A stretch of 64,000 nucleotides of DNA from Gracilinanus agilis (Eukaryota), in the NCBI RefSeq assembly GCF_016433145.1, contig NC_058133.1, positions 172,480,514-172,544,513 on the forward strand. Direction: 5' to 3'. The stretch's first letter is position 1; every line of letters starts with the position of its first letter. Below, piece after piece: positions 900 through 41,039 of the stretch. A program made the translations under genes and the position numbers. Below the pieces are notes generated by a model, which was given only the letters and a program-made list of their open reading frames with translations, had not been told where the DNA came from and ran no database searches.

Positions 900-1083
900 A
901 TTGTGACCCTTATTAGTATGAGAATCATACCAGTTGCATTCTGCCTCATCCTTTTTTGGGCTCTGTCTTTTCTGAATGAGTATCTGGAAACTTCCCCTGA
1001 GGTTATCAGGGCCAGAGGGGGGCCTAGTGATGAATAGGTAATCCTTAAAACCAACATACTATTAGAGCTAGAAGGGACCTTTG
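900..1083 (+). repeat. Donor copy of 184-bp local direct duplication
   Basis: Matches 5340-5522 with about 4 differences; continues into an intact MIR. Confidence 0.92.
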
Positions 1084-3153: not shown

Positions 3154-3176
3154 ATATGGACTCAGGAAAACACCAA
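3154..3176 (+). CDS. MYO19: Candidate ATG-bearing micro-exon of MYO19 (MDSGKHQ)
   Basis: ttattccag| acceptor, ATG at 3156, 21 coding nt, strong phase-0 donor |gtgagt compatible with exon 6384; little similarity to eutherian MLQQ. Confidence 0.3.
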
Positions 3177-3505
3177 GTGAGTCCTGGACAAGTCTTATTT
3201 GCTGGACAGGACCCAGCCTGGCCATGTGTCTAGTTGGTCTGTGTATAGCTCCACTCCCTTCAGAACAAGAACCATTACAGGCCAGGGGAACAAGGCCAGC
3301 ATTGTCTTCTGAGAGCCATGGGGCTCCTCTACCCTTTTTCAGGGTGACATTCACTGCTGGGCCTAGGAAGGAAACACCACATTGTGGAGAGAAAGAGGAG
3401 AAAGGGTAGGGAGTATCCTCCTTAGCTCACCAAACAGGAGGGGCCAGCATTGAGGAGGGGGAAGTCTGCGTTAACTGGACAGGTTCTGGGGGAAAGAAAA
3501 TTTTA

Positions 3506-3734
3506 CTTTATTATTATTATTTTATTATCTTAAATCCTCACCTTCCATCTTAGAATCAATACTGTATATTAGTTGTAAGGCAGAAGAGTGGTAAGGGTTA
3601 GGCAATGGGGTTCAAGTGTCTTGACCAGGGTCACAAAGCCAGGAAGTATCTGGGGCCAGATTTGCACCTAGAACTCCCCCCCCCCCTTCTCTAGGGTTCC
3701 TGGCTCTTGGTCTACTGAGCCACCCAGTTGCCCC
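3506..3734 (-). mobile_element. SINE1-type element
   Basis: Same consensus as 12985-13217; agaaaa(a)tttta flanking duplication. Confidence 0.85.
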
Positions 3735-3867
3735 AGAAAAATTTTAAAGTATCAGAAAGTAGGCTGTCCAAACTACAGGGCTCTCAGACATCTGTTTGAA
3801 ACCCACCCCCCACCCTTCTCTCTCTCTCTCCCTCCCTCCCTCCCCCCCAATCCCTTAATTAAAAAAA

Positions 3868-4084
3868 AATTTTTTTTAACCCATTACCTTCTGTCTTAGA
3901 ATTAGTAGTGTGTATTGGTTCCAAGGCAGAAGAGCAGTAAGAGCTAGGCAATGGGGATTAAATGACTTACCCAGGGTCACACATCTAAGCAGTGTCTGAG
4001 GACTAATTTGAACTCAGAACCTCCCTTCTCTAGGGCTTCTTCCATTTAGGTACCTCCAATCCACCAAGCCACCTAGTTGCCCCC
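3868..4084 (-). mobile_element. SINE1-type element
   Basis: ccaaggcagaagagcagtaagagctaggcaatggg consensus, gcccc head. Confidence 0.85.
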
Positions 4085-4109
4085 TCCCTACCTTTAACTC
4101 TTTTTTTTT

Positions 4110-4690
4110 TATTTAGAATATTTTTCTGTGATTCATGAATCTACTCTTTCCTCCCCCCTCCCTAAGCTGACAAGCAGTTCCACGGGGTTATACATGTGTC
4201 ATCGTTCAAAAGCTATTTCCATGTTATTCATATTTGCAGTAGAGTGCTCTTTTAACATCAAAACCCTAATAATATCCATATTGAGCTACATGACCAATCA
4301 TATGTTTTTCTTCTGTGTTTCTGTTCCCACAATTTTTTCTGGATTTGGATAGCGTTCTTTCTCATAAATTCTTCTGGATTGTCCCGTATCATTGTATTGC
4401 TGCTAGTAGAGAAGTCTATTACATTTGATTGTGCCACAGTGTATCAGTCTCTGTGTACAATGTTCTCCTGGTTCTGCTCCTTTCACTCCGCATCAATTCC
4501 TGGAGGTCCTTCCAGTTCACATGGAATTCCTCCAGTTCATTATTCCTTTCAGTGCAACAGATACCACAATTTATTCAGCCATTCCCCAATCGAAGGACAC
4601 GCCCTCATTTTCTAATTTTTTGCTGCTACAAAGAGTGAGGCTATAAATATTTTTGTACAAGTCTTTTTCCTTATTATTTCTTTGGGATAC
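4110..4690 (-). mobile_element. L1 3' end fragment
   Basis: Antisense ORF2 C-terminus (IPLLGLYPKE, CTKIFIASLFVAAKN) plus 3' UTR and poly-T. Confidence 0.88.
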
Positions 4691-5339
4691 AAACCCAACA
4701 GTGGTATCCCACCCTTAACTCTTGAAGTGATGAAGATAAGAGAGGGAGGGAGGAAATAATTAGATTTTGTCAATTGGGCAGGAAATTGACCTCTGTACAA
4801 AAATCATTGGTTGCAGAGTCATCCCTAGACTTAAAACAATCACTCTTAGGTTGTTACCTAAGAATACCTAGGAATGGGAAGAGATGTGCCCTGTTCAGTC
4901 CATGCTTTTACAGGCCAGGTCCTTGGTCCTTGTGACTAAGCTTACAGAATTGATAGCAGAGCTAAATGTCAGCAACCTGCCCTCCAGTAAGGCAGAGGAG
5001 CCTTTTATTGTCTTGGCCTCTTGAACTTAAGGGCTTAAAACAGCTGACCAACCCCCAAGTTTCCATACTTGTAGAGGTGGTATAGCCTGCACTCATTTTG
5101 ACTTTCAACATCATCTTCAGATCTGAGTACCTTAATTTCTAACTATTTCAATTCCACAAACATTTATTGAGCACCTATTCTAAGGCAGTCACTCTCTAGG
5201 CTCTGGGGATACAAAGACAAAAAGGAAATAGAGCCTGTCCTCAAGAAGCTTATATTCTACTGGAAGGGAGCCACATGGACACAGATTTTTTAGATTACAA
5301 AGTAACTTTTGGAGCTTTTTTTAGGAGGGGAGAAATACA

Positions 5340-5676
5340 ATTGTGACCCTTATTAGTATGAGAATCAAACCAGTTGCATTCTGCCTCATCCTTTTTTGGG
5401 CTCTGTCTTTTCTGAATGAGTATCTGGAAACTTCCCCTGAGATTATCAGGGCCAGAGGGGGCCTAGTGATGAATAGGTAATCCTTAAAACCAACATACTA
5501 TTAGAGCTGGAAGGGACCTTTGCCTATTCATGTCTCTTGCCCATTTATCAATTGGGGAATGGCTTGATTTTTTTATACAATTGATTTAACTCCTTGTATA
5601 TTTGAGTAATTAGACCCCTGTCAGAGTTTTTTGTTATAAAGATTTTTTCCCAATTTGTTGTTTCCTTTCTGATTTT
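5340..5676. repeat. Duplicate copy (5340-5522) fused to antisense L1 ORF2 fragment (5523-5676)
   Basis: Direct sequence match; L1 piece cccatttatcaattgggg is the reverse of the ORF2 region at ~31100-31210. Confidence 0.85.
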
Positions 5677-18098: not shown

Positions 18099-19767
18099 AT
18101 GGTAATCATGACTGTGATTGTAAATGCAATAAACTCACCCAGAAAAGGGAAGCAGCAGAGTGAATTAAAAAAAAAAAAACAACAACAATCTTAACATATG
18201 TTGTTTACAAGAAACACATTTGAGGCAAGGAGATACACACAAAGTATGGAGCAGAATCTATTGGACTTCAACTAAGATTAAAACAAAAATCAGGAGTAGC
18301 AATCATGATCTCAAACAAAGCTAAAGCAAAAATAGATCTGATTAAAATAGATGAGGAGGGCAATTACATCTTGATAAAATGGTAGTATAAGCAATGAAGT
18401 AATATCAGTACTTAACATTATATACACCAAATGATACAGCATCCATATTTTTAAAGGAGAAACTAAAGCTTAAGGAGGAAATAATAAAATCAAACTAATG
18501 GGGGGAACCTCAGCCTTCCTCTATCTGAACTAGGTTAATCTAACCAAAAAATAAATAAGAAGTGAATGAAATTTTAGAAGAGTTAAATTTAATAGCTATC
18601 TGGAGAAAATTGAATAGGGATAAAAAGGAATATACCTTCTTTTCAGCTGCACATGGTAATTATATAAAAATTCACCTTGTACCAGGGCATAAAAACTTTA
18701 CAACAAAATGCAAAAAAGCAGAAATAATAAATATAACTTTTTCAGATCATAATGCAATAGAAATTATAGTCAAGGTGTTATGGAAAGGCAAATTAAAGTT
18801 AATTTGAAACTTTTATCTAATTCTTCAAAATAGGTGGGTCAAAGAACATATCGAAACAATCATGGATTTTATTGAAGAGAATGGTAATGAGGATACAACA
18901 TATCAAACTTTATGGGATACAACCAAAGCAGTACTCAGGGGAAAGAAAAGGCAGATTGATGAATTGGGCATGCAACTAGAAAAAGAACAACTTAGAAATC
19001 CCCAATTAAAGACTAAATTGAAAATCCTGAAATATAAAGGAGAAATTAATAAAATTTTAAGTAAAAGAATTATTGAACTAGTAAGAATAGGAGTTGGTTC
19101 TATGAAAAGAAAAAAAATAGAGCATCAGTTAATTTGATTAAAAGGAAGAAGACAATCAAATTGCCAATATAAAAAATGAAAAGGGTTATTTTACCTCCAA
19201 TGAAGAAAAAATTAAAGCAATCATTTGGAGCTATATGACAATAAATCTGATAATCTAGGTGAAATAGATGAATAATTGCCTAGATTAGCAAAAGAAGAAA
19301 TAGAATACTTAATCCAATTTCAGAAAAATTGAGTAAACCTTCAATAAACTCCTCAAGAAAAAGTCCCAAGGGCCGGATGGATTCACAAGTGAACCCTATC
19401 AAACATTTAAAGAGCAATTAATCTCATTTGACAAAATAAAGTAGGAATTCTGCCAAATTATTTTTATGAGAACAAATATGATGCTGATAGGAAGACCAAA
19501 AACAGAGAAAGAAAATTGCAGACCAGTTTCCTTAATGAACATTGTTGCAAAAATCTTAAATAAAATACTAGCAAAGAGACAGCAATATATATATCACAAG
19601 GATTATTTACTTGACCATGTGGGAGTTATATCAGGCATGCAAAGTTGGTTTAATATTAGGAAAACTGTCAATATAATTGACCATATCAATAATCAAACAA
19701 ACAGAAATCACATGATTATCTCAGATAGGTGCAGAAAAAGGCTTTGACAAAATACAACACCCATTCC
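18099..19767 (+). pseudogene. L1 ORF2 5' part (endonuclease, Z domain, RT start)
   Basis: ORF-track fragments 18562, 18862, 19466 are L1-like (YTFFSAAHG, NYRPVSLMN, WFNIRK). Confidence 0.9.
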
Positions 19768-20478: not shown

Positions 20479-22890
20479 TTATTCATCATTGTTGCTGCTG
20501 AGGTCTTGTATGTATAAGTTTACAGATTGCTGGTGTCCATGTATGCTTTGAGTTTCTAACTGGTCTTTGGCTATGATCTGGCTGTCTGGCTGTTGCTGTA
20601 TGTTTATGCTTTGGCCTTCTGGCTGCTGCTGTTTGTCTATGGTTAGGTCTTTCTCTTGAGGCTTTTCTTTTGAGGACTTTATGTGTGTGAAGTGGTACCA
20701 TGCTTCTTTGCCATTGACTTTTGCTGCTGTGGGAGTTACTAGAATTATTTCATGAGGTCCAAACCATTTTGGTTCTAATGCTGATTTTTTGGTAAAGTTT
20801 CTAATGTATATGATGTCTCTAGGTTTGAAATTGTGCTAGCTATAGTCTGATGGGATTCTTTGTTGGATTAAGGCTAATCTGTGTAACTCATCTAGCCTTT
20901 CCTTTAATAGAGTGATATACTCATAGATCTTGTATTCTATACCAAAGTGTGACAGATAATTGGTGTCTTGTGGAGCTTTTCCATGCCATGGTAGTTGCCC
21001 ATACAGTAACTCGAATGGAGATAGAGGAGTTGAACTATTTGGCTGGCTACGGATATGGAAAAGTGCCATCAGCAGTGCATTTGGCCATTTGAGATGACTT
21101 TCTGAACACAGCTTTCCCAGCATTGTTTTAAGATGTTTGTTGATCCTTTCAATGTGCCTGGAAGACTGAGGTCTGTATATAGAGCATAAATGTCTTTTGA
21201 TCCCGAGCACCTGGTAAACTTGGTGTAGAATGGAATTAGCGAAATGACTACCAGAATCAGATGGAATTTTTGCAGGTATATAGAATCTGGGTGTTACTTC
21301 TCTTAGTAGGATCTGGGCTACAAATGCTATATTATTCCGCCTGGCTGGGAATGCTTCTGGCTATTTTGTTAATCTGTCCACTATGACTAATATGTACCTA
21401 TACCCTTGGCATCTGGGCATTGTGACATAATCAATCTGCAAGCATTCAGAGGAGTGTATGCTAGTTGTTTCCCTCCCATAGCTTTGACTCTGGTGATGGA
21501 TTGGTTATATTGCATGCAGACTTTGCAGTTGTCACACACTCTTTTAGTTTCTGTTGTGATGCCCATTGCGATCCAGTGTTTTCTTATAATGTCCACTAGA
21601 GCTAATATCCCATAATGACCCTTTCTGTGAATTGCTGTGCACAAGGGTGTGGTGCAGTAATTTCGGCAAAAAATGGTTTACCATAGCTGGACATCCACAC
21701 TCCATTTACTAGATCTGCCCCAAGATGATCTTGCCAATATTTCACTTCCTTTTGAGAGTATGCTTCTAGTAGTTGGTCTCTCCCTACTAAGGATAAATGT
21801 AATATTTTCAAAGGTCCAAATCTAGCTCCAAACTTTGTGATGATGTCCCCCTGGTGATTGCCTAACTATACTGGCCCCATGAGTCTTTGATGTGCACGAC
21901 AGTGCATCACAGAAACTTTGGATGGTAACTGGATAGCTTGTAACAATTCATTGATCAGTTTCCCATAGGCTATTGCTTTCCTGTTTGATGTTATGAATCC
22001 TCTATGTTTCCAGATTTCCCCTGATGCATAAACTACCCCAAAAGCATATTTTGAGTCTGTATATATGTTAACAGATTTTTCCTGTGCAATTTGGAGAGCT
22101 CTTGTCAAGGCTAAGATTTCTGCCCCTTAAGCAGAGATCTTTGGCTCAAGTGCTGTGAACCATAGAGTTTCTTCTTGAGTGGTAACTGAAGCCCCTGTAA
22201 AATGTTTGCCATCAACCCTATAACTGGAACCATCACAGAACAAAGTCAGATCTGCATTGACCAGGGGTATGTCTTATAAGTCCTCTCTGGTCTTCTGCAC
22301 AATCTCTAAGGTGTCACTGCAACTGTGAAGGCTATCCCTTTCCAATGGCAAATCAGGGATAAGTGTTGCAGGATTGATGTTCTTGCAATGATGGAAAGTC
22401 AGGTTCTTGTTGGTTAGTAATATCACTTGGCACTGGGAAAGACGTTGTGAGGTAAAAGCTTGGAGATTTGCATTCTGCACTGTGGTTTCGACTTGATGCG
22501 GGGAATACGATCTCGGCTCCCCTCCCAGAACTAGCTTTGAACTCTTCCTAACCATTAGAGCTGCAGTTGCGATTATCTTCAAACAGGAAACCATGCCTTG
22601 GATTACATGATCCAATGTGGAGTCTGAGGTCGTTACCAAGATATTGCATGAGAACACCACAGGCGTTCATGAATGAATAGGTGGAACAGCAGCTTATCAT
22701 GATCAGGAATGCCTAAAGCTGGAGATGATAGTATAGCAGCTTTTAATTTTTCTACTGCATGTATATGTTCTCTGTTGAGCTTCAGTGGCTCTGTGACAGT
22801 GTTCCTGGTTAATTCTGTCAAAGGTTTTCTATGAGTGAATAACCTGGTATCCACTGCCTACAGAAACTGGTCATGCCTATCATTGCCCGT
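20479..22890 (-). pseudogene. ERV pol 3' part: RT thumb/connection, RNase H, integrase
   Basis: AMIGMTSFCRQWIPGY; SSPALGIPD; AEILALTRAL..YTDSKYAF; HRKGH..CDNC zinc finger; PFELLYG; KWFGPHEI; stop at 20481-20479. Confidence 0.92.
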
Positions 22891-24969
22891 TGTTACAATA
22901 AAAAATGATAAAGACTGATAAAATGAGGGAAGTTCGTAGTTTAATTAAAGCCATGGCCATGTCAATAAAATATATAATTTGACTTCCAGTACGAGATGAG
23001 AAAAAAATCAATTGCTCTAATTAAAAAAAAGAGAATGTTTTAAAAATAAAAAATATATATATATAGCTAGAATTAGTGAAGGGTTTTTTTTACCCAAAAA
23101 TGAGATTCATTTTCTGTGAGTGTAAATGCATTTTACAAAATAGCAGATTCACAATGCACATTCAAATAGAGTACCATAATTTCTAATAACACATTTTAAA
23201 ACAATAAACAATGATGTTTAAAAATCATATACTTGTTACAAATTTTAAATCTTGGCTAAGAGTTTCTCAACAAACTCTGTAACTGCCTCCATATCAAAAT
23301 CTGATATTAAAAAAAACCTTCTAGTCTAAATTATCCTCAGGAATTGTAGATCCTTCTGATAGAAGTATACAGGAGCTCTTTCAGCTTCCTGTTTTTAAAA
23401 ATATCCCAGGTAGGAAATTTTCATGCTTCTACCCATTTAAGGCAATAATTTTTTTAATAATAAATTATTTTTTATAATAAAATATATAAAAATATATAAA
23501 AGTCCTTTAAGACAACAATTAGGATTTAAAGTAAAATTTAAAAAACCTCATAAAATTACAATTTAAATCTCAAGACATCGAAACCTCCAAGGTTTTATAC
23601 AATTACCAATATAGAATAAAACTTAAAAGACATGTACTCCTATAAGATGTTCATAGATGGTACATATAACAGCATTGTTTTGATACAGTAAAACCTTAAA
23701 TAAATTAGGAAATATAATAAAATCATAAGCAGAAACTTCATTAGCTTAAAATGATTTCAGTGCAACAGGAAAATCAACGAAATAAGCAAGATTAATTCAT
23801 AAAATTAATCAGCAAAATACAGTAAGATACAGAATCTTTTTAAAACCCATTTAGTTATGAGGTTTTAAAATCCACCTTTGGTCCAATTCAGAGTTCAAAT
23901 TCAGGGTCCTTATAATCAGTCTCTGCTCTTAGTTCAAAGTTCTGAGCAGGTATGGGGTGAATTTCTTCCCCTGAGTTTCAGTTTAATAATCACAAGAAAG
24001 TTTGAATAGGCCATGTGCCCGATGAACAGTAAACGCTAGTTCCAGGTGGAGGCGTGGAGTAGGGGCTAGAGAAAAGCTTAGGTCAGTTTTTAGAAAATCC
24101 CACGTGTAGAGATTGTGGGTGGGGGTTGGGAGGCTGCCTAGATCAGGCTTTAGAGAAAACACGTGGAGGGCTAGAATGGATTAAAAGCAAGAGTAGGGGT
24201 AATACTTTACAAATCTTTAGAGGCAGAGGCTGAAGCTGAAACGGCGGCACTCAGCAAGTCAGGGCTGGGGTCGCTCCTTGGAAATCTCAGGATTCGGTAG
24301 GCAGGAACGGAGGCCAGGTTGGTAGTTAGGGAAATCCACGGAGACGACAGCAGGAAACCCAGCATTCGATTACTGTCAGTAGGGGCCACCAGGCAAAAGA
24401 ATTTGCAGCCCAGCGGCAATTAAAACCATTGTCCCTCTTCCCTGTAAAGCAGCCTTGAGGCTGGGGAAAATAGGGAGAGGAACAAGAGCGGAAAAAGATC
24501 GTTTCTGAGACTCCAGGTCCCAGAGCCACATGGCAAGCAAAGCCGCTCTCCCCTTTCCCTCTGGAGAGGATTTTAAATACTCTCAGACTATCTAAAAAAT
24601 TTAGAGTCCGAATTTTCAACCTTCTGGTTGCCATCAATGTTACGATTAAAAATGATAAAGACTGATAAAATGAGGGAAATTAGTAGTTTAATTAAAGCCA
24701 TAGCCATGTCGATAAAATATATAATTTGACCACGCGTCTGATAAAATCTCTTCAAAGATACCGCCAGTGCCGCCCATCCTCGCTACGTAGCCAAGGAAGA
24801 GATCCTCTCAAGCCCAAATTTTAAGCTGCCCTATACGTGGGGACGTCTGACATCCCCACGTCCAAAACCGGAAACCAGAAACCCATTGGATCATGGGGAA
24901 TGTAGTCTCAAAGTCCCCGCGTGTCCACAGGAAGTTTTAAATGGCACCTCCCTGAATTCCAAACACACA
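22891..24969 (-). mobile_element. Non-coding LTR element nested in the ERV RT
   Basis: TG...CA ends; 4-bp TSD CCGT (22887-22890, 24970-24973); removal restores PLR-AMIGMTSFCRQW; ~95-bp direct repeat 22891-22985 vs 24638-24732. Confidence 0.88.
24638..24969 (-). repeat. Complete 332-bp LTR of the nested element
   Basis: TG...CA termini, CpG-rich U3, ATTAAA near 3' end on - strand. Confidence 0.75.
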
Positions 24970-25800
24970 CCGTAGTGGTTTCTTTGTCTTGGGCAGGCTC
25001 AACTTTTGTATGTCTGCAACTCTTCTTTGGGATATGCTTCTGGTACCATTCTCTAGTATGAATCCCAAATACTCAACCCTGGTCTTAACCCACTGTACTT
25101 TATTTCTTGCAATTTTATGCCTTCTCTTACACAGCTCTTCTGACAAGTGAATGCTGTCCCTTTGGCAAATATCTCCCATTGGTGACAGTAGTATGTCATC
25201 TACATAATGTACCATCTTGCTGTCAGTGAAAGAAATGAATTCTAAGTCCTTTTGCAAGATTTGGCAAAATATGTTGGCACTATTGACATACCCTTGTGGC
25301 AAACGACTCCATAACAGGCTCTTTCTTTCCTATGTGAAAGCAAAAAGCTTCTGGCTGTCTTTGTACACAGGCACTGAGAAGTAGGCTGAACTGAGATCTA
25401 AAATGGTGTACCACCTAGCTGAAGCTGGAATTTCAACTATGATTTCAGATGGACAAGGTACAACTGCATGAGTCTTTTCCACATAGTTGTTGATAGCCCT
25501 CAGGTCTTGAACCATTATCCACTGGGTGTTTCCTTCAGCATCTAGCTTTGCCTTTTTTATTGGCATAATGGGAGTATTGAATTCTGAAAAGCCATGGACT
25601 AGTATTCCTTGTTCTAGGAGACTCTGGATTATTGGTCTGATACCGGCCACTGCCTCTTTGCTAAGCTTGAATTGAGGTATCCTAGGTGGTACTCCTCCTT
25701 TCACTCTGATCTTTACAGGTTTAGCTGATAGGATTCTTCCTACATCTGGTAGGAAGATTTGGTAGCCCAGATGTCTTTAGGGATTGTATCAGGAATCTTG
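24970..25800 (-). pseudogene. ERV reverse transcriptase, 5' part
   Basis: PQFKLSKEA, NTPIMPIKK, VQDLRAIN, LDLSSAYF, LPQGYVNS, YVDDILL, PKTKKPLR. Confidence 0.93.
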
Positions 25801-25899
25801 TAGATGTTATCTTATTCTATTGTTAGTGCATCAGATTCCCTTTCCAATCTGTCCAAACAGAGGATTGGATGGTGTTTTAATGACTGCTTGGAAAAATGC

Positions 25900-26232
25900 A
25901 AATAGATTTCACCATTTGATTCACAATAAATGGTTGCAGTTAATTTGCATAGGATGTCCCTCCCTATTAGATTGTTTGGACATGATGGAAGCAAGAGGAA
26001 TGAGTGATCAAACTGGATGGGTCCCAATTTCACCATTTTGGGTTTAAATTTTGGTGCTTAATTGTGAGATTCTAGCAGCTCCTCTCACTTGTACATTCCC
26101 TTGCGTTTCACAATCCCTTGGCAAATGTTGGCGTATGCTGCACTCTGCCCCCATGTCTACCAAACCCTGAATTATTTTCCCATTAATTTCAATATAAATT
26201 ATTGGTTTACTAATGGTATTATTTTTGTGCAA
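25900..26232 (-). pseudogene. ERV aspartic protease remnant
   Basis: IYIEINGKIIQGLVDMGAECS (DTG-like) and CPNNLIGRDILCKL motifs; frameshifted. Confidence 0.88.
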
Positions 26233-27483
26233 AGGAAAGCAACTGGTTTAGTTGTCTTTGTGGCTTAAGATCAGTGTTATCAGATTCCAATGTCAGTATA
26301 TTAGACGGTTTACAGTAATACAATATGTCTGCCTCCATGAACAGATCACTTGAACATTCTGACCCTGTCTCTTCCCCCAGCTCATTTGTCTCCCTAGCAA
26401 CTGTGCCTGGCTTAGAATTTTCAGGGACTGCTCTGCTTGGGCAAAATGGCTGACTTGAAAAGTCAGTTACAACCTGATCTTTTATTTTCAAAGCTAGAGG
26501 TTTATAAGAGTTCCCTGTTACAGCTTCAGGGTGAGAGTTTGATGTGCTATCTTTTCATTTCACTATGCCAGGGTATCTCTCCTCTAACTTTGGGTTTATT
26601 TGATGGTAAACTTTGTCCCAAGTGAACTTAGTTTTCTCCCTTGGTCCCTCAGAATTCTCAAGCAAGCTAGTGGGATCTGATGTTAGAGCATTTACGTTTG
26701 GAAACTGTTTGGCTTCATTATGATTTTCAGGTTGAAATTTCCTAGCCTCAGGATTAAGAATTGATCTTTTGTTACAGTTACTGGCTGGGGTGGGTAAAAA
26801 GTCTGCCATTTTTGGCTACATTGTACTTTGAGTGGAGTGAATTGAAAAAATGTTTCTTTTCCCTCTTTTATAGAACACTGCCCCCTGGACTGGGATATAT
26901 ATGACTTTTCTCTTTTGCCAATATGTTCCCCTCTTTGTTTTTCTTTATTCGGTATGGGCTTTTGACTCCTATATGATATAAAGTCTTTTTCCCAACACAG
27001 GTATTTCTATTTGGCAGGCTGGTTTTAAGCTTTCCTTGCTTCTGACCAGACCCTCCGTGTCTTTGTCTTCTCACATCCCCATCTTATAATGAAGCATGTG
27101 CTGATTCAGTGTTCCCTACAAGAGTGTGTCCATCCCCAACATCTTCATTTGAGCTATTTCTTTGTACATTTCTAATTCCTCAGCAGTCTTTTGTCTGTTT
27201 ATGTTTTCAAATACTATGTATTGATTATCATTATTGGTACCTAACCATAGTACTTCAGCCTAATTCTCTGTTTTGCCTCTATCTTCATTGAGCTCAGTGC
27301 TTTCTCTCTTTATAGCACCCATCTGTGAATTGGATAAATTAGTGTCCTGGCTTCATTGGTGTCTCTGTCTCTCTCCCATCTTGAGGTACCTTTGCATATC
27401 CTCAAGTGAGGGAGTTTTTGAATTTTCTTTGCAATCATGTTTACAACATTGATGTTCTTTGTCGTCTTCTTTTTTGTTGTGAC

Positions 27484-28807
27484 TTATTTTCCCATTGCCT
27501 TGCTGTTTGTAAATTCAATTTGCTTCTTAAATTTATATTGCCGGGTCAGATGACCTGGCATAGGTAGCACTGTGGTACCTTGCTATAGGTTTTCTTAGGC
27601 CTGGAATAGGACTCTGTCTGCTTGTAGGTTTGACTTCTTGCTGTCTTCAAAGCTAAATTTTTAATCTCTCTTTCTTTGTCCTTTTTCATCTCTTTCAACT
27701 GCCTTTGCCAACTGCCTTTTCAGCTCAGCTATTAAGCTGTCCTCTGAATCTGACTCAGTTCTTGCTTTTAGTTCTTTGTTCTTAGAGTCATGTGTGTATA
27801 TATATGTTGCATGCTGCCTTAGTTCTTCCACTATTAGGGTTTCCCACTAAGGACAGCTCTGTTTAAAGTAGATTTGAATGGGTAAGGTGATCCCTTTTAT
27901 GAACTGCTTCCTTATGTGTGGTAGGGATTCTGCAGCCTGATCTTTGTGGAAACTCCAAAAATTCTCCACTCTCAATAAGCCTGTCCAGAAAAAGACTGGG
28001 GTGTTTGTCCTTGGCCTGCCTCAGTTTCTTATACTTATTCCATGCATTGGGTTATTTTGCATGGATTTTGAGTACTTCTAGGAGGTCTGTTCTACACCGA
28101 AGCAGGTATCTCATGTTGGTTTAAGAGGAAATATCGAGGTCTTGGTGATTTAATGGCCAGGAAGTGAGATTCTCATTGCTTCTAGTTTCTTCTAGGAATC
28201 TAGCTTTCTCAGAGGGGGTATAAAATTCATCCAGAAGAAATTCAACGTCACTAAAACTGGGGTTAAACAAATCAAAGGTCCTTTTTAATTCTTTTGCAGA
28301 CTTGTATGGGGACAGGAAGTATTTGGGGAATCTTCTCCTAAGGACTTCCAGGTCCTGGGCCATGGAAAGCTTTGTAAGTTTTCATCCATACCAATTCTCC
28401 ATCTGGTCTAAACTGAGCCTGATTGATAATGGGGTATAAAGATACTGTGTTAGGACCTACTGCTCCTGTCTCAGTCTGATTGCTGGCCTGTTTGTCATTG
28501 TTGGGTTGGGTAGGATTTCCTGTAGTCGAAGGCTTAGCTGCACTTGTGGCAATTGGGCTGTGTGTGCCTTTTCTATTGTCTCAAGCTGTAATATTGTATG
28601 GGAGTCTAAAGTTTGTCCCTCTCTTATTTTCCTATTGATCTCAATCATTTGTTTCATTTGCTCCTTCATAACCTACAGCAGCTCCTCATTTGTGTTCTTT
28701 CTAGTCCCCCATAACAGTTCTGTTGCCTTTTTGAGACCCCAAATTCCCTGAATCATTGTGATTATCATAGCCAATATTGTAGGCAGGTATGATATTAATT
28801 CTGCCAT
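27484..28807 (-). pseudogene. ERV gag (hydrophobic N-terminus, capsid, broken CCHC knuckle)
   Basis: ATG at 28807 in ACCATGG context; same frame through 28669 and 28363 ORFs; WNKYKKLRQAKDKHPSLFLDRL MHR-like; CYLC and GHLTRQY separated by a frameshift; TAA at 27486-27484. Confidence 0.8.
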
Positions 28808-28990
28808 GGTCAAAGCTAAATATTTATATAGGAATCATATATTGTCAGGAGTTTCGGGCAGTATTCAGGAATTATGTAGAACCAAAGGTTGAAAATTCCC
28901 TGCATTGCTGAATAGATAAACAGGGATAAAGTGGTAAAGATAAAGGTGACTCTTGCTATCCTCATGGTTCCTATACCCTCAGGTATCAGT

Positions 28991-29008
28991 TCCCTTATGG
29001 CTCAGCCA
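28991..29008 (-). other. Primer-binding-site-like sequence TGGCTGAGCCATAAGGGA
   Basis: TGG start 5 nt after LTR-terminal CA; partial resemblance to tRNA-Arg PBS (TGGCGAGCCAG...). Confidence 0.5.
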
Positions 29009-29013
29009 AAAAC

Positions 29014-29856
29014 TGTTAAAAAAAGGGTGGTGAAGAAACACAGATCTTTGTTGTATTGATAATAGAAGGGCTATGCCTCTCCCAGACTGACAGGCTCTAC
29101 TGGACTGAGTCTGCCTGGCTGTCTCCTTTTAATAGTTGCCCAAGCAAGTAACCAATGAGGAGTTGTGTGTGTTATCAACTTCTCTAGTTCCTTAGCCTGG
29201 GGTTGGTTTGGTTATTGATGTGGGCTAATACTAGTATGCTGGTTGGATAATGCTATGAATCTGTGTGAATAAATTTCCCTTCCTAATGGCTTTAGATGTT
29301 TTACCAATCAGGAAGGCACTCCAAACATTGACTTGAACTTAAACAACAGTATTTAATTCTTGCTCAACAAGGGGTTAGGAACAAGGGAAAGGGAAGAAGT
29401 TTGGGGGATGCTTTTGCTAACTAATTCAAGGAGATGATCAGAAACTATGGACGTTGTTGGATCAAATATAGGCTGGAGATTCTTCACCCTCTCGCTAACT
29501 CTGGCTTGACTTGACCGGAGCTAAGCCAAAGAATAGGGAAGGCTATTGATGTTTCCTTGATGTCAATATTACTGCTCTCTCACAGCTCTATTGTTTGTAG
29601 GTATGATACTTTCCTAAAGCTCTCAACAAGGATGCTAGATTGCAGGTATGGGCCTACCCATACTCCCAGATCCACCCTCCACCCAGCAATACTCAAAATT
29701 GAGTTCCTTTTGTGCTGTGCATCATGGGTATTTATAGGGGTGGGTCCAGCTGCCTTTTAGCCCTGGCTCAGGCCACCTGGGTACATTCCCAGGTCTCAGC
29801 CTACAATACTGTCACTCAAGGTGTCCTCTATCTTGTCCCAGAAGTTCCTTATTATA
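29014..29856 (-). repeat. 5' LTR region of the ERV (possibly composite of two LTRs)
   Basis: Ends ...TTAACA immediately before a TGG-starting PBS-like site; TATAAATA at ~29729-29736 and TATTAAAA at ~29126-29134 on - strand. Confidence 0.6.
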
Positions 29857-31794
29857 GCAAGTATCTGCAGTGGGGATAAGTTAGAAGCCTTCCCAATAAG
29901 ATCAGGAGTGAAGCAAGGATGCCCATTATCGCCACTATTATTTAATGTTGTGCTAGAAATGGTAACTTTAATAATTAGAGAAGAAACTGAAGGAATTAAA
30001 ATAGGCAATAAGGAAACTAGACTATCACTCTTTACAGATGATATGATGGTATAATTAGAAAATCAACTAAAAACTATTTAAAATAATAACTTTAGCAAAG
30101 TTGCAGGATACAAAATAAACCCACATAAATCATCAGCATTTCTACATATTTCCAACAAAGTCCAGGAGCAAATCATTCTAGACAATATAATATACTTGGA
30201 GATCTATTTGAAAATACAAACGCAGGAATTATATGAACACAGTTACAAAACACTTCACACAAATAAAGTTAAGTCTAAACAATTGGAAAAACATTAATTG
30301 CTCATGGGCAGGCTGAGATAATAGAATAAAAATGACAATCCTACCTAAATTAATTTACTTGTTCAGTGCCATACCAATCAAACTTCCAAAAAGCTTTTAT
30401 AGAATTAGAAGAAATAATAACAAAATTCATCTGGAAGAACAAAAAATCAAGAATATCAAAGGAACAAATGAAAAAAAATGTGAAGAATGGTGGCCTAATA
30501 GTACCAGATATTAAGTTGTATTATAAAGCAGTGATCATCAAAACAATCTGGTACTGGCTAAGAAATATAAGGGTAGATCAGTGGAACAGAATAGGAATAA
30601 ATGGCCTCAGCAATCTAGCGTTTGATAAACCAAAAGATCCCAGCTTTGGGGATAAGAACTTACTATTTGACAAACTGTTGGGAAAATTGGAAAACAGTAT
30701 GGTAAAAATTAGGTTTGGATCAATATATCTCACACCCTATTCCAAGATAAGATCAAAATGCATGTATGATTTAAATATAAAGAGTGATATAAGTAAATTA
30801 GAACATAGGTAGATTTTATGACCAAACAAGAGATAGAAAATATTACAAGATATAAAATGAATAATTTTGATTATATTAAATTAAAAAATGTTTTGGACTA
30901 ACAAAACAAATGCGATCACCCTAGAGCAAATATCAATAATATGGAAATAGATCTTGATCAATGACACATGTAAAACTCAGTGGAATTGCACATTGGCCGT
31001 GGGAGGGGCCTGGGAGGAGGGGAGGGGAAGAACATGAATCATGTAAATATGGAAAATTTTTCTTAATTAAAAAAATGCAACCAAGATTAGAAGGGGAACA
31101 ACAAAGTGGGGAAAAAATTTTATGACAGCTTTCTTTGATAAAGGTCTCATTTCTCAGATATATAAAGTACAAAGTCAAATTTATAAGAATATAAGTTACA
31201 CTCCAATTGATAAATGGTCAAAGGATATGAAGAGGTAGTTTTCAGATGAAGAAGTCAAATATCAATAATCATATGAAAAAATGTTCTAAATCCCTCTTGA
31301 TTAGAGAAATGCAAATTATAAGAACTCTGAAGGACCACCTTATACCTATCAGATTGGCAAATATGACAGTAAAGGAAAATAATAAATGTTGGAGGGGATG
31401 TGGCAAAATTGGGACACTAATACATTGCTGGTAGAGTTGTGAATTGATCCAACCATTCTGGAGGGCAATTTGGAATTATGCCCAAAGGACTATAAAACTA
31501 GGTCAATGTGCTAGAGATTTTTTTAAATGGGAAAGGACCTGTTTGTACAAAAATATTTATAGCTGCTCTTTTTGTGGTGGCCAAGAATTGGAAACTAAAG
31601 CAATGCCCCTCAATTGGGGAATGGATGAACAAACTGGGGTATATGATGCTGATGGAATACTCTTGTGCTATAAGGAATGATGAACAGGATGATTTCAGAG
31701 CAGGAAAGACCTACATGAAGTGATGCAGAGTGAGATAAGAATCAAGAGAACATTATACACAATAATTGAAACATTATGGAACAATCAACTGTGA
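29857..31794 (+). pseudogene. L1 ORF2 3' part (RT and C-terminal domain)
   Basis: [60 protein letters not shown]. Confidence 0.92.
30914..31072 (+). mobile_element. 5'-truncated L1 3'-UTR insertion inside L1 ORF2
   Basis: G-rich 3' UTR tract, A-tail, aaatgc duplication at both ends. Confidence 0.75.
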
Positions 31795-33988: not shown

Positions 33989-34065
33989 AGGATTGCTTTG
34001 AAGTGACCAGAGATGCCATGCTCCACCTGGGCATTGATCACTCCATTCAAAACAACATCTTTAAG
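33989..34065 (+). CDS. MYO19: MYO19 exon (EDCFEVTRDAMLHLGIDHSIQNNIFK)
   Basis: tttccag| and |gtcagg; 77 nt. Confidence 0.96.
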
Positions 34066-34975
34066 GTCAGGAGAGAAAAATGAGTCATGTCATTGGGGAA
34101 GGGGATCAGCCATCGCCTGGGCCAGGAGATTCTACAACTGGCAACACCTCCTTTCTTGATGCAGTGACTAGGCCTTATCTCCTCCAGAGGTGGCAAGATC
34201 AACCAGTGAGCTGGGGTGACTGAGCTCCGGGGAGCTGCTCTGGGTGCACCAGGGGCTACAATGAGGCCTAGAGCCTTGGGGCCGGCCCTTGAAGATGTCG
34301 CTCAGGAAGCCCCAGGCTTTTCAGTCAACCAGGAAAGACCAGGCCTGAGCACTATGAGGAAAGAATAGTTGAGAAATTGCTGAAGTGAACAGATGTGTGA
34401 TTGGGAAGCAGCAGTCCAGGGCCGGGCAGGAATCTGCTTACTGTGGGCCCAGGACAAAAAGGCTGGCACAGGGAAGAGCAGGTCGGGGCAGTTTCAGTGC
34501 TGTAGTGATCAGGGCCTGGCACTTGGCCTTGGTCAGAGAAGCTGTGCCCTCTGAATTGTTTTGAATGCTGCCCGCTGGGTGTGGATGGCCCTTGGAGAGC
34601 TTCATCAAGGAAGGAAGGTCCGTGCCCCTGGGAATAGCTAGGTGGGGCCTGGGCACTCTGACACCAGGGATCTAGGGGGCTTCTTATAGGTGTCACCCAG
34701 GCCTGCAGGGCCATCACACTTAGCTGGCTGAGGAGAGCAGGAAGAGAAGAAAGTATCTCTCCAGAGGCAGGGATTCCCCTTAGCTCTGCAACTACAGAAA
34801 TGAGGCACAGAAAAGAATGACTGCTGAGGATGAAGCTCCTTCCTTCCCCTCCTCCAAGCCTATTGCCCTACCACCAAGGGGTGAAAGTGGGGAGTGGTCA
34901 CCCAAAAAGCCTTTGGAAGTGGGTGCCTCCTCTCAGGTCCAGGCCTCTGAGTGCACTGTCCCGCTGTTCCTACAG

Positions 34976-35066
34976 GTCTTGGCAGGCTTGCTGCATCTTG
35001 GCAATGTCCGCTTTGCTGACTCGGAGGATGAATCCCAGGTTTGCCAGCCACAGGAAGATGCTAAAT
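34976..35066 (+). CDS. MYO19: MYO19 exon (VLAGLLHLGNVRFADSEDESQVCQPQEDAK)
   Basis: ctacag| and |gtaaga; 91 nt; LAGLLHLGN motif. Confidence 0.96.
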
Positions 35067-35470
35067 GTAAGAGGGAAGGAGCTCACCACCCCTGCCTGGG
35101 AACCCTGAGGACCCAGGGGGGCTCCCAGGAACCAGGTTACAGGCTGATAAGAGGGCAGGCTGGCGCCCCGCAGGCTGGGGAAGGAGACTTGTGTCCGGGG
35201 AAGAGCCTGAATCTGGGACAAGGGGGGTGGGGAGAGCCTGGCGAAGATGCCGAAAGCACCCTCTCTGGCCCTTTGTGGTGCCGCGGCCGGCAGCAGCCTA
35301 GTGATGTGGGGCAGCCAGAGCGGGCCTTCTGTCCAGGGCCAGGCCGCAGGCGTGTCTGAGCTCCTTCCCCCAATTCCTCCAGGACCCGCACGGCCGGCAG
35401 GGGCCCAGGGGCTTTGCCGCCTCACTGGCCCGCCACCGGCATGTAACTGTCGCTGTGGTCCCCACGCCAG

Positions 35471-35642
35471 GTTGTGTAGCGACGGTAGCCTCTCTGCTCC
35501 AGATCCCCTGTGAGGAGCTGCTGGACACGCTCCAGGTCCGGAGGATCAGCGCCGGGAAGCAGCAGCAGGTCTTCAGGAAGCCATGCTCCCGGGCCGAATG
35601 TGAGACCAGGAGAGACTGTCTGGCCAAAGCCATCTACGGCCG
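35471..35642 (+). CDS. MYO19: MYO19 exon (CVATVASLLQIPCEELLDTLQVRRISAGKQQQVFRKPCSRAECETRRDCLAKAIYGR)
   Basis: cgccag| and |gtgagt; 172 nt; RDCLAK.IY.RLF motif. Confidence 0.95.
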
Positions 35643-35725
35643 GTGAGTGAGCCCAGCTGCTCTGTGGGGGTCTCCGCAGGGGGCCCCGGGCCCCAGGGCT
35701 CACCACCCTCCCTGACCCTCCACAG

Positions 35726-35799
35726 GTTGTTCGAATGGTTAGTGTTTGTCATCAATGGGAGCATCTGTGCAGAGCCCTCCTCTTGGAGCACCTTCATCG
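35726..35799 (+). CDS. MYO19: MYO19 exon (LFEWLVFVINGSICAEPSSWSTFI)
   Basis: ccacag| and |gtacgt; 74 nt. Confidence 0.95.
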
Positions 35800-37903
35800 G
35801 TACGTGTTCTTCGGCCTCCTCGCCTTTCTGACCCCTGGCCCAGGTCCTCCCTGGACCCCTTGGGCAGCTCCTTTCCCTCATTTCCTCCTTTGGAAAATGA
35901 GGGGATTAGACTAGATGATGGCAGCCCCAAGCATTTACTTTGCGTGTTCCCTCCCTGTATGAGGTGCGAGGGTGCAGGCAGAAACACTGTCCCTCCTCCC
36001 AAGGAGCTCCCATTCCGGTGGAGGAGGCAACATAAAAAAGTGACCCATAGAGAAGGTGAGGCAGAGCTGCTGGGGAGGCCTGGGAAGAGCCTCCTGTTGT
36101 ACCATCAGGGACGGGGCTATCCATTGGAGGGGAGGAGGGGAGGGCATTCCAAACGCTGCAAAGGTGTGGAGGTCAGAGATGGAGCAGTTTTGTGTGGCAG
36201 GAGAACCCTGGGGGCTGGGGGTTGGGGTCAAGCCTGCAGAGGGCTCCAGGGGTCTCTCTCCATAGCATCCAGAAGGGCCCATCCGCCTCCTGTGTGGGAG
36301 GAACTAATGGCTCTGTTGCTGATCTTGGCGGCTCCATCTGCTCAGCATTCCCCCCCACGCCAGTGTGCCCAGTCACCCTCTCCCCTGAAGCCGCCCTGGC
36401 TCCCTGGCCCTCCTAGGGTGCAGAGCTCGGAACACACATAAGCCCTTCATGGCCTGACCTCCATGGCTCTCCCCAGCTAATGAGACGCTGTTCCAGTCAC
36501 ATGCTCTGGGCTTGCGCCTCAATGTCTATTGGATGTTCCCTGTGAATACCTTCCCATATTCCTGCTCTCATGCCTTCGCGTGTCCCCAGCCTTACCTCCA
36601 CTTCCCAAACATGAGCCTCTCTCGAAGGGTCAGCTTGTGTGCCACCTCCTCTAAGTTTAATCATTACAAAACCTTCCTTGATTTCTCCAAGTTCTGGTCC
36701 CTTGGTTTATATTTGCTCATTTATGTACCTTTGTTCGGGCAGGTAGGTGGCACAGGGAATAGAGTACTCCTGAGTTCAAATCTGGCCTCAGCCATGTAGT
36801 GGCTAGGAGACCCTGGGCAAGCCACTTAAGCCTGTGGGCCTCAGTTTCCTCATTTGTAAAAATGAGCCAGAGAAGGCAATGGCAAGCCACTTCCCCAGAA
36901 GGAGAATCACGGAGACTCAGACGTGACTGAACAACAATCACAAACTCATGTTCTCTCACTGATGGGATCTGAGCTCCTCAAGGGTGGAGTTTCTGTTCTT
37001 TCCTCTTACCTCTGGAAGTGCCTGGTAAAATGGAAACGTAATCATTAAAACTTATTGAAGTGAAAGGGGAACCAAAGAAAAAGAGAGGGATGAGTTGAAT
37101 TAATTGAATGTCAGGCTTCTCCACACCCACAGGAAAGGGGGTGGCCAGGCATGAGCCCTCCCCTGGAATCCTGAGCCACCAGGTGGTCTGGTCCAACCCC
37201 TCATTTTACAGATGAGGAAAGGCGAGTATGGACCCCTAGTTCATAGCAGAGCCAGAACTGGATCTCAGGTTCTCAGGCTCCAAGTCCAGAGCTATTTCCT
37301 CTACACCACAACTTTGAAGTGTTAATCAAGTGCCTCCCCCTCCCCCGCCATGAACTTGGTTTCAGGGTGAGAGTATTTTTAAAACTGCATTTCATTATAA
37401 TGGATTTCCTTTGTAATCCCATGCACTTTATTTATTTTAAGCCCTTACCTTTCATTTAAAACATTATTCTGAAAAGGAGTCCATGGTAAGTTAAAAGTTA
37501 AGAATCCCTACATTAGGTCCTGGTTCTTTGGGCAGTGTGGGCACAGCACTAGCTACCATCATGGCAGAATGAGAGCTCCAAAGAGAAGCCCGAGTGTCAA
37601 GTTTCTGCCCCGTCTGCCACAGATAAAGAGAGGGCATGGAGAGAACCCAGGTGCTTCCCCTGGGGAAGGAAGGTTTGCTTTACACGTCCTAGAACAGACG
37701 CTCTCCTCACCTCGGCTTTCCGATAGACATCGTGCCAGGCTTGTGCCAGAGAGGGGCCCTGGGGACTCCTGGATCCAGTGTCGGCCTCTAGCTGGAGTCA
37801 GACTGCAGATTCAGACAGGTGGGGGGCAGCCAGCCGCCCCCCCCCTCCATAATAACTGTGCTTTCTCCCCCACTCCTTCCTTCTGCACCTTCCTGTGGCC
37901 CAG

Positions 37904-38025
37904 GGCTCCTGGATGTGTACGGGTTTGAATGTTTCCCCAACAACAACCTGGAGCAGCTATGCATTAACTATGCCAATGAGAAGCTGCAGCAACACTTTGT
38001 GGCTCACTACCTGCGAGCCCAGCAA
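37904..38025 (+). CDS. MYO19: MYO19 exon with switch II ([41 protein letters not shown])
   Basis: cccag| and |gtacgg; 122 nt; DVYGFE and [13 protein letters not shown]. Confidence 0.97.
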
Positions 38026-38326
38026 GTACGGAGCGAGGGGCAGGGTGGGCAGGGAAAGCGGGGAATGGGCTGTATGGCTCAGTGGCCACAGAACTGTGGC
38101 TAGGGCTGGGTGGTGCGGGGAAGATGACTAGCCTCTTTGGTGCTCCTGAGTGCACCTTCTGGTGCAGGGCCTTAGGAACAAGGCAGGGTTTCATCCCAAA
38201 CTGCTGCCTCCTTAAATGCCCATATTTGATTTGGCCTGACCTCTAGAGGCCAGAATGTCCAGGAGCTCAGGTCACTCCTGCCCCTTCCCCCTGCTCACCC
38301 TCAACCCTGCTTTTCTATGGCTCCAG

Positions 38327-38440
38327 GAGGAATATGCTGCAGAGGGCTTGGAGTGGTCTTTCATCAGCTACCAGGACAATCAGAGCTGCCTGGACCTGAT
38401 TGAAGGAAATCCTGTGAGCATCTGTTCCCTCATAAATGAG
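38327..38440 (+). CDS. MYO19: MYO19 exon (EEYAAEGLEWSFISYQDNQSCLDLIEGNPVSICSLINE)
   Basis: ctccag| and |gtgaga; 114 nt. Confidence 0.97.
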
Positions 38441-38762
38441 GTGAGAAGGAAAGGGGGTGGGGGGCACTGGGCTGATGAGTCACTTGAGTACAGAAGGTTT
38501 GAGCCTCAGTGGGCATCCACACTAAATCCAATATTGTGAGGGCCCCCCTCCCCCAAGTGGAGAAGACAGTGAGAGCTACTTAAGGAGGAGAGAACGGTGG
38601 CTTGGCCCATGACTAGCCACTGCATTGCCAGGAGGGGGAGGGAGGAAGGAAGGAAGGGTAGGGAATAGCCTGAGTTTTAAAACCACAGGAATAATCAGAA
38701 CAGTGTAAATGTAGTTTCTTTGTTCTTGCTCTCATCTTCATTCTCGTGTTGTTTCTATGCAG

Positions 38763-38939
38763 GAGTGTCGCCTCAATAGATTGTCCAACAGCATCCAGCT
38801 CCAGACTCGAATTGAGAAGGCCCTGTCCAGCAATGCCAGCCTGAGCCGAAACAAGCTTAGCAAGGAGCCCAATTTTATCATCTCTCACTATGCTGGTCCC
38901 GTGCAGTATCAGATCGAGGGCATGGTTGAGAAAAATAAG
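38763..38939 (+). CDS. MYO19: MYO19 exon (ECRLNRLSNSIQLQTRIEKALSSNASLSRNKLSKEPNFIISHYAGPVQYQIEGMVEKNK)
   Basis: tatgcag| and |gtcagc; 177 nt; HYAG.V.Y...G.VEKNKD motif. Confidence 0.96.
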
Positions 38940-41039
38940 GTCAGCAGAAAGCAAGGGAAGCCTGGATCCTTAGTTACGATAACAGTGCTCAGTGACCTTT
39001 AAAGAACTTCCTACAGAGGGCTTTTACCAGATACTCAGAGGTGGAAAGGGAGGGTCTGTTCTATCAGATCCCCAAGGGGTGGTCTTTCAGCCTCCTTGAT
39101 GTGAAGATGTTTAGAGAGAGTGAACCTCCAGCCTTCCTTGGCAGCTTGTTCTGCCAAGGAACTCCCATTTGTGAGAACTCCCTACAGGTTCCATCCACTC
39201 CCCATGGTCCTGTCCTCTGCTTTGTGTCAGACACTGCCCTGGGCTCCAGGGACCAAAATGAAACAGGCTCAAGGTACTTACCTAAGACAATAATATGTAC
39301 ACATGGAGAGAGTTATGGTTTAATTTTGGGAGGGTCACAAAAAACTTAATGGATATGATGGTGCTTGGGCTGATTCTTACAGGAAGCAAGGATTCTCTGG
39401 GGTAGAAGTAAGAAGGGAACAATGCAAGTCTAGAAAAGCATGGAGCAGGATATTGGAATGATACATTCGAGGGACATCAAGAAGGGCAGGATAGTTTGAA
39501 TGGACCAGAGGGTACAAAGAGAATAATATCAAATAGGGTTGGGGGTCAGATCATCAAGGGCTTTAAATGCCAGAGGAGGAATGTGTGTTTGATCCCAGAA
39601 GGCACTAACCTCTGTAGTATATTGAATTTGGAGAGTGGCCTGGTAAGATCTTAGGACAGTCACCTTGGCAGTTGTGTAGACAGACTTGAAGGAACACCAA
39701 ATGAGGAGCTTAATTCAGTGGTCCAGTGAGAGGTGAACCAGGGTAATGGTCATTGGGTAGAGAATGGGATAGGTTCAAGAGATGTTGTGGAAGTAGAAGT
39801 GGCAGAATTTGGCAAATGATCAGATAAGTGGAGTGATGGAGAGTGAAGAGTGGAGGATACTACCAGGTTGCAAACCCTGAAAGATGAGTGTCCACAACAG
39901 ACATAGGGAAGGTCAGAAGAGGGATGAATTTCATTTTATAGATAATGAGTTTGAGATGTCTATGAGACAGCCAGCTTGAAATATCCAGGAAGTAGTTAGT
40001 AATGTAGGACTTGGAACTGGGCATATAGACCTAAGAATCATATCCAAGTTATAGTTAAACCCCCAGGGAGGATCCAGGGATTGAAATGGAATGGTTAGAC
40101 AGATTAGGCAGAAGGAAGGCCAGGAGAGAGCAGCAGCCAAAAAAGAAAAGAGAATGTATCCAAGAGGAAAAGTGTGGTCAGCAGCATGCAAAACAGAAAG
40201 GTTGAGATGATGAAAATTTAGACACAGAAGTAAATTCCTCTGCCTGGTCCAGAAGTGCACAAAAAGATGGCCAGAAGTTGGTAGAGGCTGGAAAAAAGGG
40301 ATTAGACCTGGGAAGCCAGCATATGTGCAAGTGTCCAGTCTACAACTCACAGGGAGAGGAGCCATACTAGGGAAGGTACAGCATGGAAGCCAGCCAGTGT
40401 GAGCTACACTAACTTCCAAGTTCCAGTATTGCCTGTCGGAACCAGGATAACTCTGTGCCTGATGCCAGTGTGGTCCCCATGAGGGCCTAACAAAAACCAG
40501 AGGATGGAACCTGCTCCTGATCAGGGATTGTGTAAGGAGACAACAAATGCTTGTCAAGGCTGGAATCCAAAGTGACCAGGAGATTTAGAACTAAACCAGG
40601 GATTGAAGGTAGAGAACAGCCATCCTCACCCCCATCAGCAGCAGGGAAAGGAGCAAACAAAGCCTACCTTAACCCATCTATGAGGGTAGGAGGGGACTGC
40701 CTGAGCACAATATTTTATGGCTAGAAGTATGAGTAAACAGAAGAAAACAAACATGAAAAAATATCCCAAAGGTAAACTCCAAAGACAGCAGCCCCCTGCA
40801 ATAAGAAATTCAGAGGAAAAGAATGACTTGGTCACAAGAACTACAAAAGTGACCAGAAGAAATGAAGTAGGGGATTTAAAAATGAAAGAGAGAAAACCTA
40901 GATCTACCAATTAAGAGATCATTGGTATATTTGGAGAAAGCAATTATTGTTGAGTGGGATGGCAGGTAGATCGCAGAGGGTTGAGGAGTGAGAAGAGAGG
41001 AAGTAAGTGGGGACAGTGAGTACAAATGGCCCTTTTTTT

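Follow-up and report, generated by a model that had tools for sequence, protein, structure and literature searches.

A long stop-poor segment between nucleocapsid and protease in a decayed class I endogenous retrovirus

The window (the whole 64,000-nucleotide stretch of DNA analyzed here) contains, on its minus strand from about 29855 to 19800, a decayed provirus whose nucleocapsid (NC) and protease are separated by a stop-poor segment of some 430 codons. The reading that we prefer, and hold tentatively, is that this segment is native and was once translated, within the Gag-Pro-Pol precursor, as a long leader, predicted to be unfolded, ahead of the protease. A preliminary description of this DNA had proposed a large extra domain at the front of Pro-Pol; the formerly coding character of the region, its likely native origin and its class I flanks stood up to analysis, and an accessory or captured folded domain found no support.

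The provirus and its stop-poor segment

Judged by its sequence, the provirus is a class I (gamma/epsilon-like) endogenous retrovirus (ERV). Pfam domains were found in the expected order (Gag_p30, RVP in two halves, RVT_1, RNase_H, rve and MLVIN_C; Table 1), and a p30-type capsid and a GPY/F-type integrase C terminus are both present (Gag_p30: E = 1.2e-6; MLVIN_C: E = 1.2e-16). The top PDB matches of its reverse transcriptase (RT) were RT/RNase H p80 and MMLV RT chains, and bit scores were 157.7 for 4hkq, 88.7 for Pr125Pol chains (which we take to be foamy virus), 66.1 for 7sr6 (presumably HERV-K) and 57.4 for HIV-2 RT. A database search with the RT returned 8 matches from 383 candidates at 38 to 52% identity, including skate, crane, finch and WEHV1 proteins, and identity to WEHV1 was 36% over 268 aligned residues. 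By these sequence comparisons the provirus is without a close relative in the collections searched. Going by short repeats in the window, its host is likely a marsupial. Directly after the likely 5′ LTR, near 29010, lies a stretch beginning with TGG that we take to resemble a primer-binding site. No second LTR copy was found within the 64-kb window and no env match to Pfam in the 680 nt beyond the integrase; the 3′ end of the provirus appears to have been lost.

The gag 5′ region (28966-28740, minus strand) begins about 30 nt past the primer-binding-site-like stretch. Its two hydrophobic 19-mers have hydropathies of 1.56 and 1.84, and no matrix domain was matched there above the Pfam cut-off. 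By analogy with glyco-Gag, this hydrophobic Gag N terminus could be a signal-anchor, for which the Gag of the ER-budding IAP is a comparison case. A Bhikhari-like membrane Gag was also considered and found no support: the available portion of the source describes a coiled-coil N terminus and contains neither “transmembrane” nor “signal peptide” (PMC12067270). The zinc knuckle of NC was called by eye, Pfam giving no zinc-finger match in that region.

Several other features of the locus were recorded. The RT is split by a 2.08-kb TG...CA element (22891-24968, minus strand) with an ACGG target duplication, a CpG-rich first half and an internal 93-nt repeat (94%), which is likely a solo LTR left by another, younger ERV. 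On the minus strand at 20670-20070, the integrase closes with about 65 Q-rich residues, among which loose 11-residue repeats can be made out by eye; some 400 A-rich nt follow this tail, in which the frames contain 4, 5 and 7 stops and Pfam matches nothing. The provirus itself appears nested in ORF2 of an element that we assume to be LINE-1-like (about 18560-19700 and about 29860-30810, plus strand; RVT_1 at 29761-30051). Farther away, positions 34000-39000 are GC-rich (50 to 63%) and may be a CpG island or promoter of the host, and a sequence of roughly 180 nt is directly repeated at 98% identity at 900-1083 and 5340-5522, 4.4 kb apart.

Table 1. Features of the provirus, from its 5′ to its 3′ side
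Feature	Positions	Strand	Basis and remarks
Likely 5′ LTR	29015..29855, ends approximate	-	Very high contig depth over 29010-29800
gag 5′ region, broken	28440..28966	-	Two hydrophobic 19-mers, likely coiled stretch, P/T/N-rich linker
Capsid (Gag p30), stops and frame breaks	27800..28435	-	Pfam Gag_p30, E 1.2e-6; PDB 6hwx/6hww, E 1e-4
Nucleocapsid, one damaged zinc knuckle (CYLC 27569, GHL 27555)	27484..27665	-	Knuckle by eye
Segment, block A	27149..27502	-	118 codons, 2 stops; K/E/D/N/Q-rich, predicted disordered
Segment, middle	26816..27148	-	111 codons, 5 stops in the frame first described
Segment, block B	26219..26815	-	198 codons, 1 internal stop; S/T/P/E/N/K-rich, predicted disordered; ATG at 26809
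Aspartyl protease, frame break	25812..26246	-	DMG at 26157; both halves match Pfam RVP
Reverse transcriptase and connection region, split by insert 22891-24968	22663..25776	-	Pfam RVT_1; tblastn; PDB 4hkq, 157.7 bits
RNase H and integrase, Q-rich C-terminal tail	20479..22615	-	Pfam RNase_H, rve, MLVIN_C

Between NC and protease, the minus-strand frame 27502-26222 comprises 427 codons and ends in a terminal TAA (26221-26219). As first described, it contains exactly 8 internal stops, mostly TAG or TGA (4 TAG, 3 TGA and 1 TAA), and all of the sequence assigned to it lies within it (open reading frames 26555-26809 and 26219-26491, and the peptide HQCCKHDC). The competing frames hold 24 and 42 stops on the minus strand and 21, 21 and 17 on the plus strand. 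Base shuffles (n = 5,000; 15,000 frames) gave a mean of 29.3 stops and dinucleotide shuffles (n = 3,000; 9,000 frames) a mean of 26.5, and no frame in either set had 8 or fewer, which bears out the claim that stops are rarer than in random DNA. From the knuckle GHL (27555) to the protease DMG (26157) the distance is 1,398 nt, in keeping with the gap of about 1.3 kb noted earlier; the protease thus does not lie directly behind NC. The accompanying premise that the two adjoin in gamma- and epsilonretroviruses agrees with MoMLV and WDSV, whose gag stops lie at the NC-protease boundary according to the part of PMC13517186 consulted.

Coding signal and other copies of the segment

The coding signal is uneven along the segment, and the single clean frame of about 430 codons originally envisaged was not borne out: the middle 110 or so codons hold 5 of the 8 stops and show no coding signal in the frame first described. 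With block limits (A, middle and B) that were chosen after the stop positions had been seen, the observed stop counts were matched in 44 of 2,000 shuffles for block A (any frame), in 79% for the middle and in none of 2,000 for block B. The outer blocks, with 3 stops in 316 codons, have decayed at the same rate as homology-anchored gag and pol (8 in 1,036 codons); the middle has 5 in 111. A codon-phase model trained on the gag and pol of this provirus scored the frame first described at +4.6 over the whole segment, against -26.2 and -34.9, and picked that frame in most outer-block windows and another frame at four windows starting at 27125-26900. Measured against random sequence equally poor in stops, the margin of the model gave P = 0.058 for block A, P = 0.075 for block B and P = 0.87 for the middle, and positional base bias in the segment was P = 0.087; beyond stop depletion, the coding evidence is borderline. 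We are nonetheless highly confident that the segment was formerly coding.

The middle stretch is stop-poor in all three minus frames (5, 4 and 2 stops). Since the pro-pol of this provirus has undergone at least 6 frame changes over about 3.7 kb, about 2 would be expected in 1.3 kb by decay alone. The simplest reading of 27148-26816 is that it is out of register in this copy, the alternative being a non-coding gap. A gap of that kind would suit an arrangement in two pieces, with block A a Gag tail, the middle non-coding and block B the start, at ATG 26809, of a Pro-Pol message of its own that arose by separate initiation or by splicing. Foamy viruses do make Pol apart from Gag, the ATG has an A at -3 and a G at +4 and is preceded by a pyrimidine-rich run, and among the listed length differences one other copy has 11 gaps over 287 nt in the middle, where coding signal is lacking. 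We nevertheless regard two pieces as quite improbable, given the frame changes expected from decay alone, the scarcity of middle stops in three frames together with the length variation of copies there, and an RT far nearer the MLV type than the Pr125Pol chains (157.7 versus 88.7 bits). RNA folding gave 5 of 30 windows at z of -2 or lower across the segment; the two lowest adjacent windows (z = -3.1 and -2.3; 25 shuffles each) cover 27100-26951 on the minus strand, inside the non-coding-looking middle.

To survey other copies, contigs of a public genomic run (X1), which may be the window's own sample and contains 69% of sampled window words, were placed on 24960-29800 at 80% likeness. The 1,969 pieces placed comprised 149 at ≥99%, 298 at 95 to 99%, 585 at 90 to 95% and 937 below 90% identity, and many copies lying along the segment were 80 to 95% similar to the window. 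Summed depth, which is not copy number, was 242 to 600 in segment bins, 304 to 792 in gag (one bin 2,300), 904 to 5,311 in RT and the second half of the protease and up to 14,006 in the LTR, and the contig identical to the window locus had a depth of 30. Among the 40 of 956 variant sites listed, letters differing from the window were carried by 8 to 25 contigs at 10 segment sites and by 3 to 11 contigs at 4 gag sites. No joint among the 15 of 32 listed skips the whole segment, the largest skip inside it being 344 nt in one contig, and no single listed contig spans knuckle to protease. Length differences are given below for the 12 of 77 listed. From two runs of another organism (X2 and X3), only 3 and 4 short pieces could be placed.

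Because depth and contig counts of the segment match those of gag and not those of the LTR, the segment travels with gag and a private insertion is unlikely; that it is a family-wide trait seems to us very likely indeed. The preliminary description had named sister copies without the segment as the sign of a secondary insertion, and what was found is sister contigs covering the segment as they cover gag. It had also suggested seeking an inserted element with its own termini and target site duplication; among duplications of at least 6 bp, the segment ends have in common only A-rich 6- and 7-mers. Later insertion of unrelated DNA does have a parallel within this provirus in the 2.08-kb TG...CA element of the RT, which is bordered by a target duplication of 4 bp, and a non-coding RNA element would fit the low-z folding windows, the stop-poor frame being incidental in either case. 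Both ideas are very improbable: base composition and CpG loss of the segment match those of gag and pol, the stop depletion of block B was reached in 0 of 2,000 shuffles, and the sole Rfam match in the provirus lies outside the segment and below threshold. Within the segment no tandem array was found, nor any DNA-level repeat of it elsewhere in the window.

The encoded product

For homology and fold searches the segment was translated with X at its 8 stops. This read-through peptide gave no match in a word search of 1,540 candidates (of lengths 234 to 748 only), none by phmmer among 1.84 billion representatives and no family in NCBIfam; a PDB sequence search of the segment returned nothing at E = 1. 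Whichever of the six frames was searched, no Pfam family passed the cut-off; one match below it came from the five frames other than that first described, and no dUTPase was matched in the segment. Of 49 matches to a segment pattern in metagenome contigs and 7 in viral contigs, none was confirmed. Searches for relatives of the provirus itself were likewise blank (RT: 0 of 5 in viral contigs; integrase: 0 of 311 in metagenomes; capsid: 0 of 492 longer proteins), so close kin of the family are poorly represented in these collections, and missing homologs of the segment are little evidence of novelty.

The product was said to be hydrophilic, and this agrees with the frame first described, which has no membrane segment and a highest 19-residue hydropathy of 0.72. 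Late-domain motifs (PTAP, PPxY and YPxL) are absent from the same frame, no CCHC occurs in the segment, and HQCCKHDC fits no zinc-binding pattern tested. FoldIndex values of the three parts were -0.25, -0.02 and -0.04, only block A being clearly on the unfolded side, and the best AlphaFold model (single sequence, X at the 8 stops) had a mean pLDDT of 34.7 with no residue at or above 70. By its composition the protein of the segment is predicted to be unfolded, the AlphaFold score being weak evidence of disorder. A 19-residue motif occurs twice (27331-27275 and 26419-26363, minus strand), with 9 of 19 residues identical (P = 0.009 to 0.061 depending on the scoring scheme), a weak hint that the segment may have grown by an old internal duplication.

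The proposal of an accessory or captured folded domain found no support in family, homolog or confident fold, and the profile and structure-prediction searches, suggested earlier for a consensus peptide and run here on the peptide of this copy, came out as given above (no family match; mean pLDDT 34.7). We think it probable that no folded captured domain is present. Capture of a host or viral domain, or of an envelope-like protein, by in-frame fusion between Gag and protease would have precedents at or near this position in the betaretroviral dUTPase, per the part of PMC1224870 seen, and in crocodilian ERVs that took up host mRNA, between pol and env or replacing env in the accessible text of PMC4299795. 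For this segment, capture is a distant prospect: Pfam in six frames, NCBIfam, PDB, the 1.84 billion representatives and the 1,540 candidates gave no match, no residue reached a pLDDT of 70, and the hydropathy maximum of 0.72 in the frame first described leaves no signal, fusion or transmembrane hydrophobic segment for an envelope-like protein.

Junctions, expression and known systems

The frame that contains the knuckle His stops at 27486, 23 codons past GHL and directly behind a GGGAAAA heptamer (27493) whose phase would let a -1 slip enter the frame of the segment. Such heptamers number 8 in 1,600 nt. Two X1 contigs have a few dozen additional bases immediately 5′ of this heptamer, so the Gag junction of the window copy is likely damaged and heptamer and stop may be there by chance; as a slip site, GGGAAAA may serve as a lead only. 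At the protease end of this copy, the frame of the segment does not run on into that of the protease and has no heptamer nearby, and among the listed length differences 4 X1 contigs, which make up about a quarter of the depth, depart in length from the window copy; decay is the likely cause of this frame break. Both junctions are therefore broken in the window copy and variable in length among copies, and the earlier placement of the segment at the front of Pro-Pol is plausible, with that variability attached to it.

Class I viruses usually use readthrough at gag-pro, and 67% of class I ERVs keep gag and pro in one frame, in the portion of PMC1224870 available; the corresponding portion of PMC13517186 puts the gag stop of MoMLV at the fifth residue of the protease and that of WDSV at the end of NC. 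The one-frame arrangement, with the MoMLV stop, would suit a long unfolded C-terminal Gag tail (NC plus about 430 residues) with a readthrough stop at the protease end, as would the likely damage to the NC junction. Since both junctions are damaged in this copy, such a tail is the main rival of the leader; if true, the segment would have been produced in the same amounts as Gag and enclosed in the capsid. It is an unlikely reading all the same, in view of the WDSV stop, the Gag-frame stop right behind NC in this copy and the lack of PTAP, PPxY and YPxL in the frame first described. The position of the Gag-frame stop just past the knuckle, behind an in-phase heptamer, and the lack of a segment-frame heptamer at the protease junction favor the leader placement, so that, granted the rest of the reading, a Pro-Pol leader is somewhat more probable than a Gag tail.

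As a leader, the segment would have been expressed as follows. Gag would have ended shortly past the knuckle, and a minority of ribosomes would have gone on by recoding (readthrough, or a -1 slip at the heptamer of this copy), translating some 430 residues before they reached the protease. At maturation the spacer would then have been cut off by the viral protease; by likeness to MLV sites, we presume candidate cuts at Tyr-Pro near 26575 and Leu-Thr near 26295. Among the options named in the preliminary description, “spacer” fits best. Its job would probably have been mechanical or regulatory and not catalytic: it may have been a flexible tether keeping the enzymes away from the capsid lattice, and it could have delayed protease dimerization, by analogy with lentiviral transframe peptides. 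It would likely have grown within the lineage. A more ambitious scenario, which we consider improbable, is that an undescribed marsupial class I lineage rebuilt its polyprotein for intracellular life, with a membrane-anchoring hydrophobic Gag N terminus replacing matrix, an orphan accessory protein of about 430 residues between NC and protease and a long integrase tail; in that scenario the orphan would be a new accessory protein of retroviruses, freed by the viral protease and under selection family-wide.

Marsupial ERV1 families are catalogued in Repbase and Dfam, and the family of this provirus may already be on record there. A literature search, mostly at the level of titles and abstracts, found nothing naming this layout, and a spacer of this kind is not described in the portions consulted of PMC11334065, PMC12067270, PMC4299795, PMC1224870, PMC13517186 and bioRxiv 2024.07.05.601823. 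The gag-pro junction serves as a taxonomic marker (PMC1224870, in part). A family that spread with some 430 additional codons there would mean that so large an addition, with no known domain in it, can be accommodated at this junction. If true, this would make the junction a new place to seek accessory proteins of retroviruses, and annotation of ERVs that presupposes fixed distances between motifs could overlook such elements or break them up. Since the element is dead here and its function inferred, interest will lie mainly with ERV specialists.

Lentiviruses provide one comparison, their transframe peptide p6* and the Gag p6 tail being hydrophilic and unfolded, lying between NC and protease and being removed by protease. 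These are about 50 to 70 residues long; the segment differs in having about 430 residues, no sequence match and no late-domain motif. In the literature examined, as far as the text of PMC1224870 at hand goes, the betaretroviral dUTPase is the one known addition at this position: dUTPase-Pro likewise has additional coding sequence between NC and protease. That dUTPase is a folded enzyme of class II, whereas the segment has no dUTPase match and the RT of the provirus is class I. The marsupial MEGrv 1-3 are likewise class I, branching between gamma- and epsilonretroviruses, but differ in measuring 7.8 to 8.5 kb with short LTRs of 281 to 486 nt; compared by description, they come with no mention of an extra pre-protease region in the accessible part of PMC11334065. 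MoMLV and XMRV (gamma) and WDSV and WEHV1 (epsilon) have the same order of Gag_p30, RVP, RVT_1, RNase H, rve and MLVIN_C. The provirus differs from these viruses in its hydrophobic Gag N terminus without a matrix match, and from MoMLV and WDSV in the about 430 codons that lead from its knuckle to its protease, where their gag stops at the NC-protease boundary (PMC13517186, in part).
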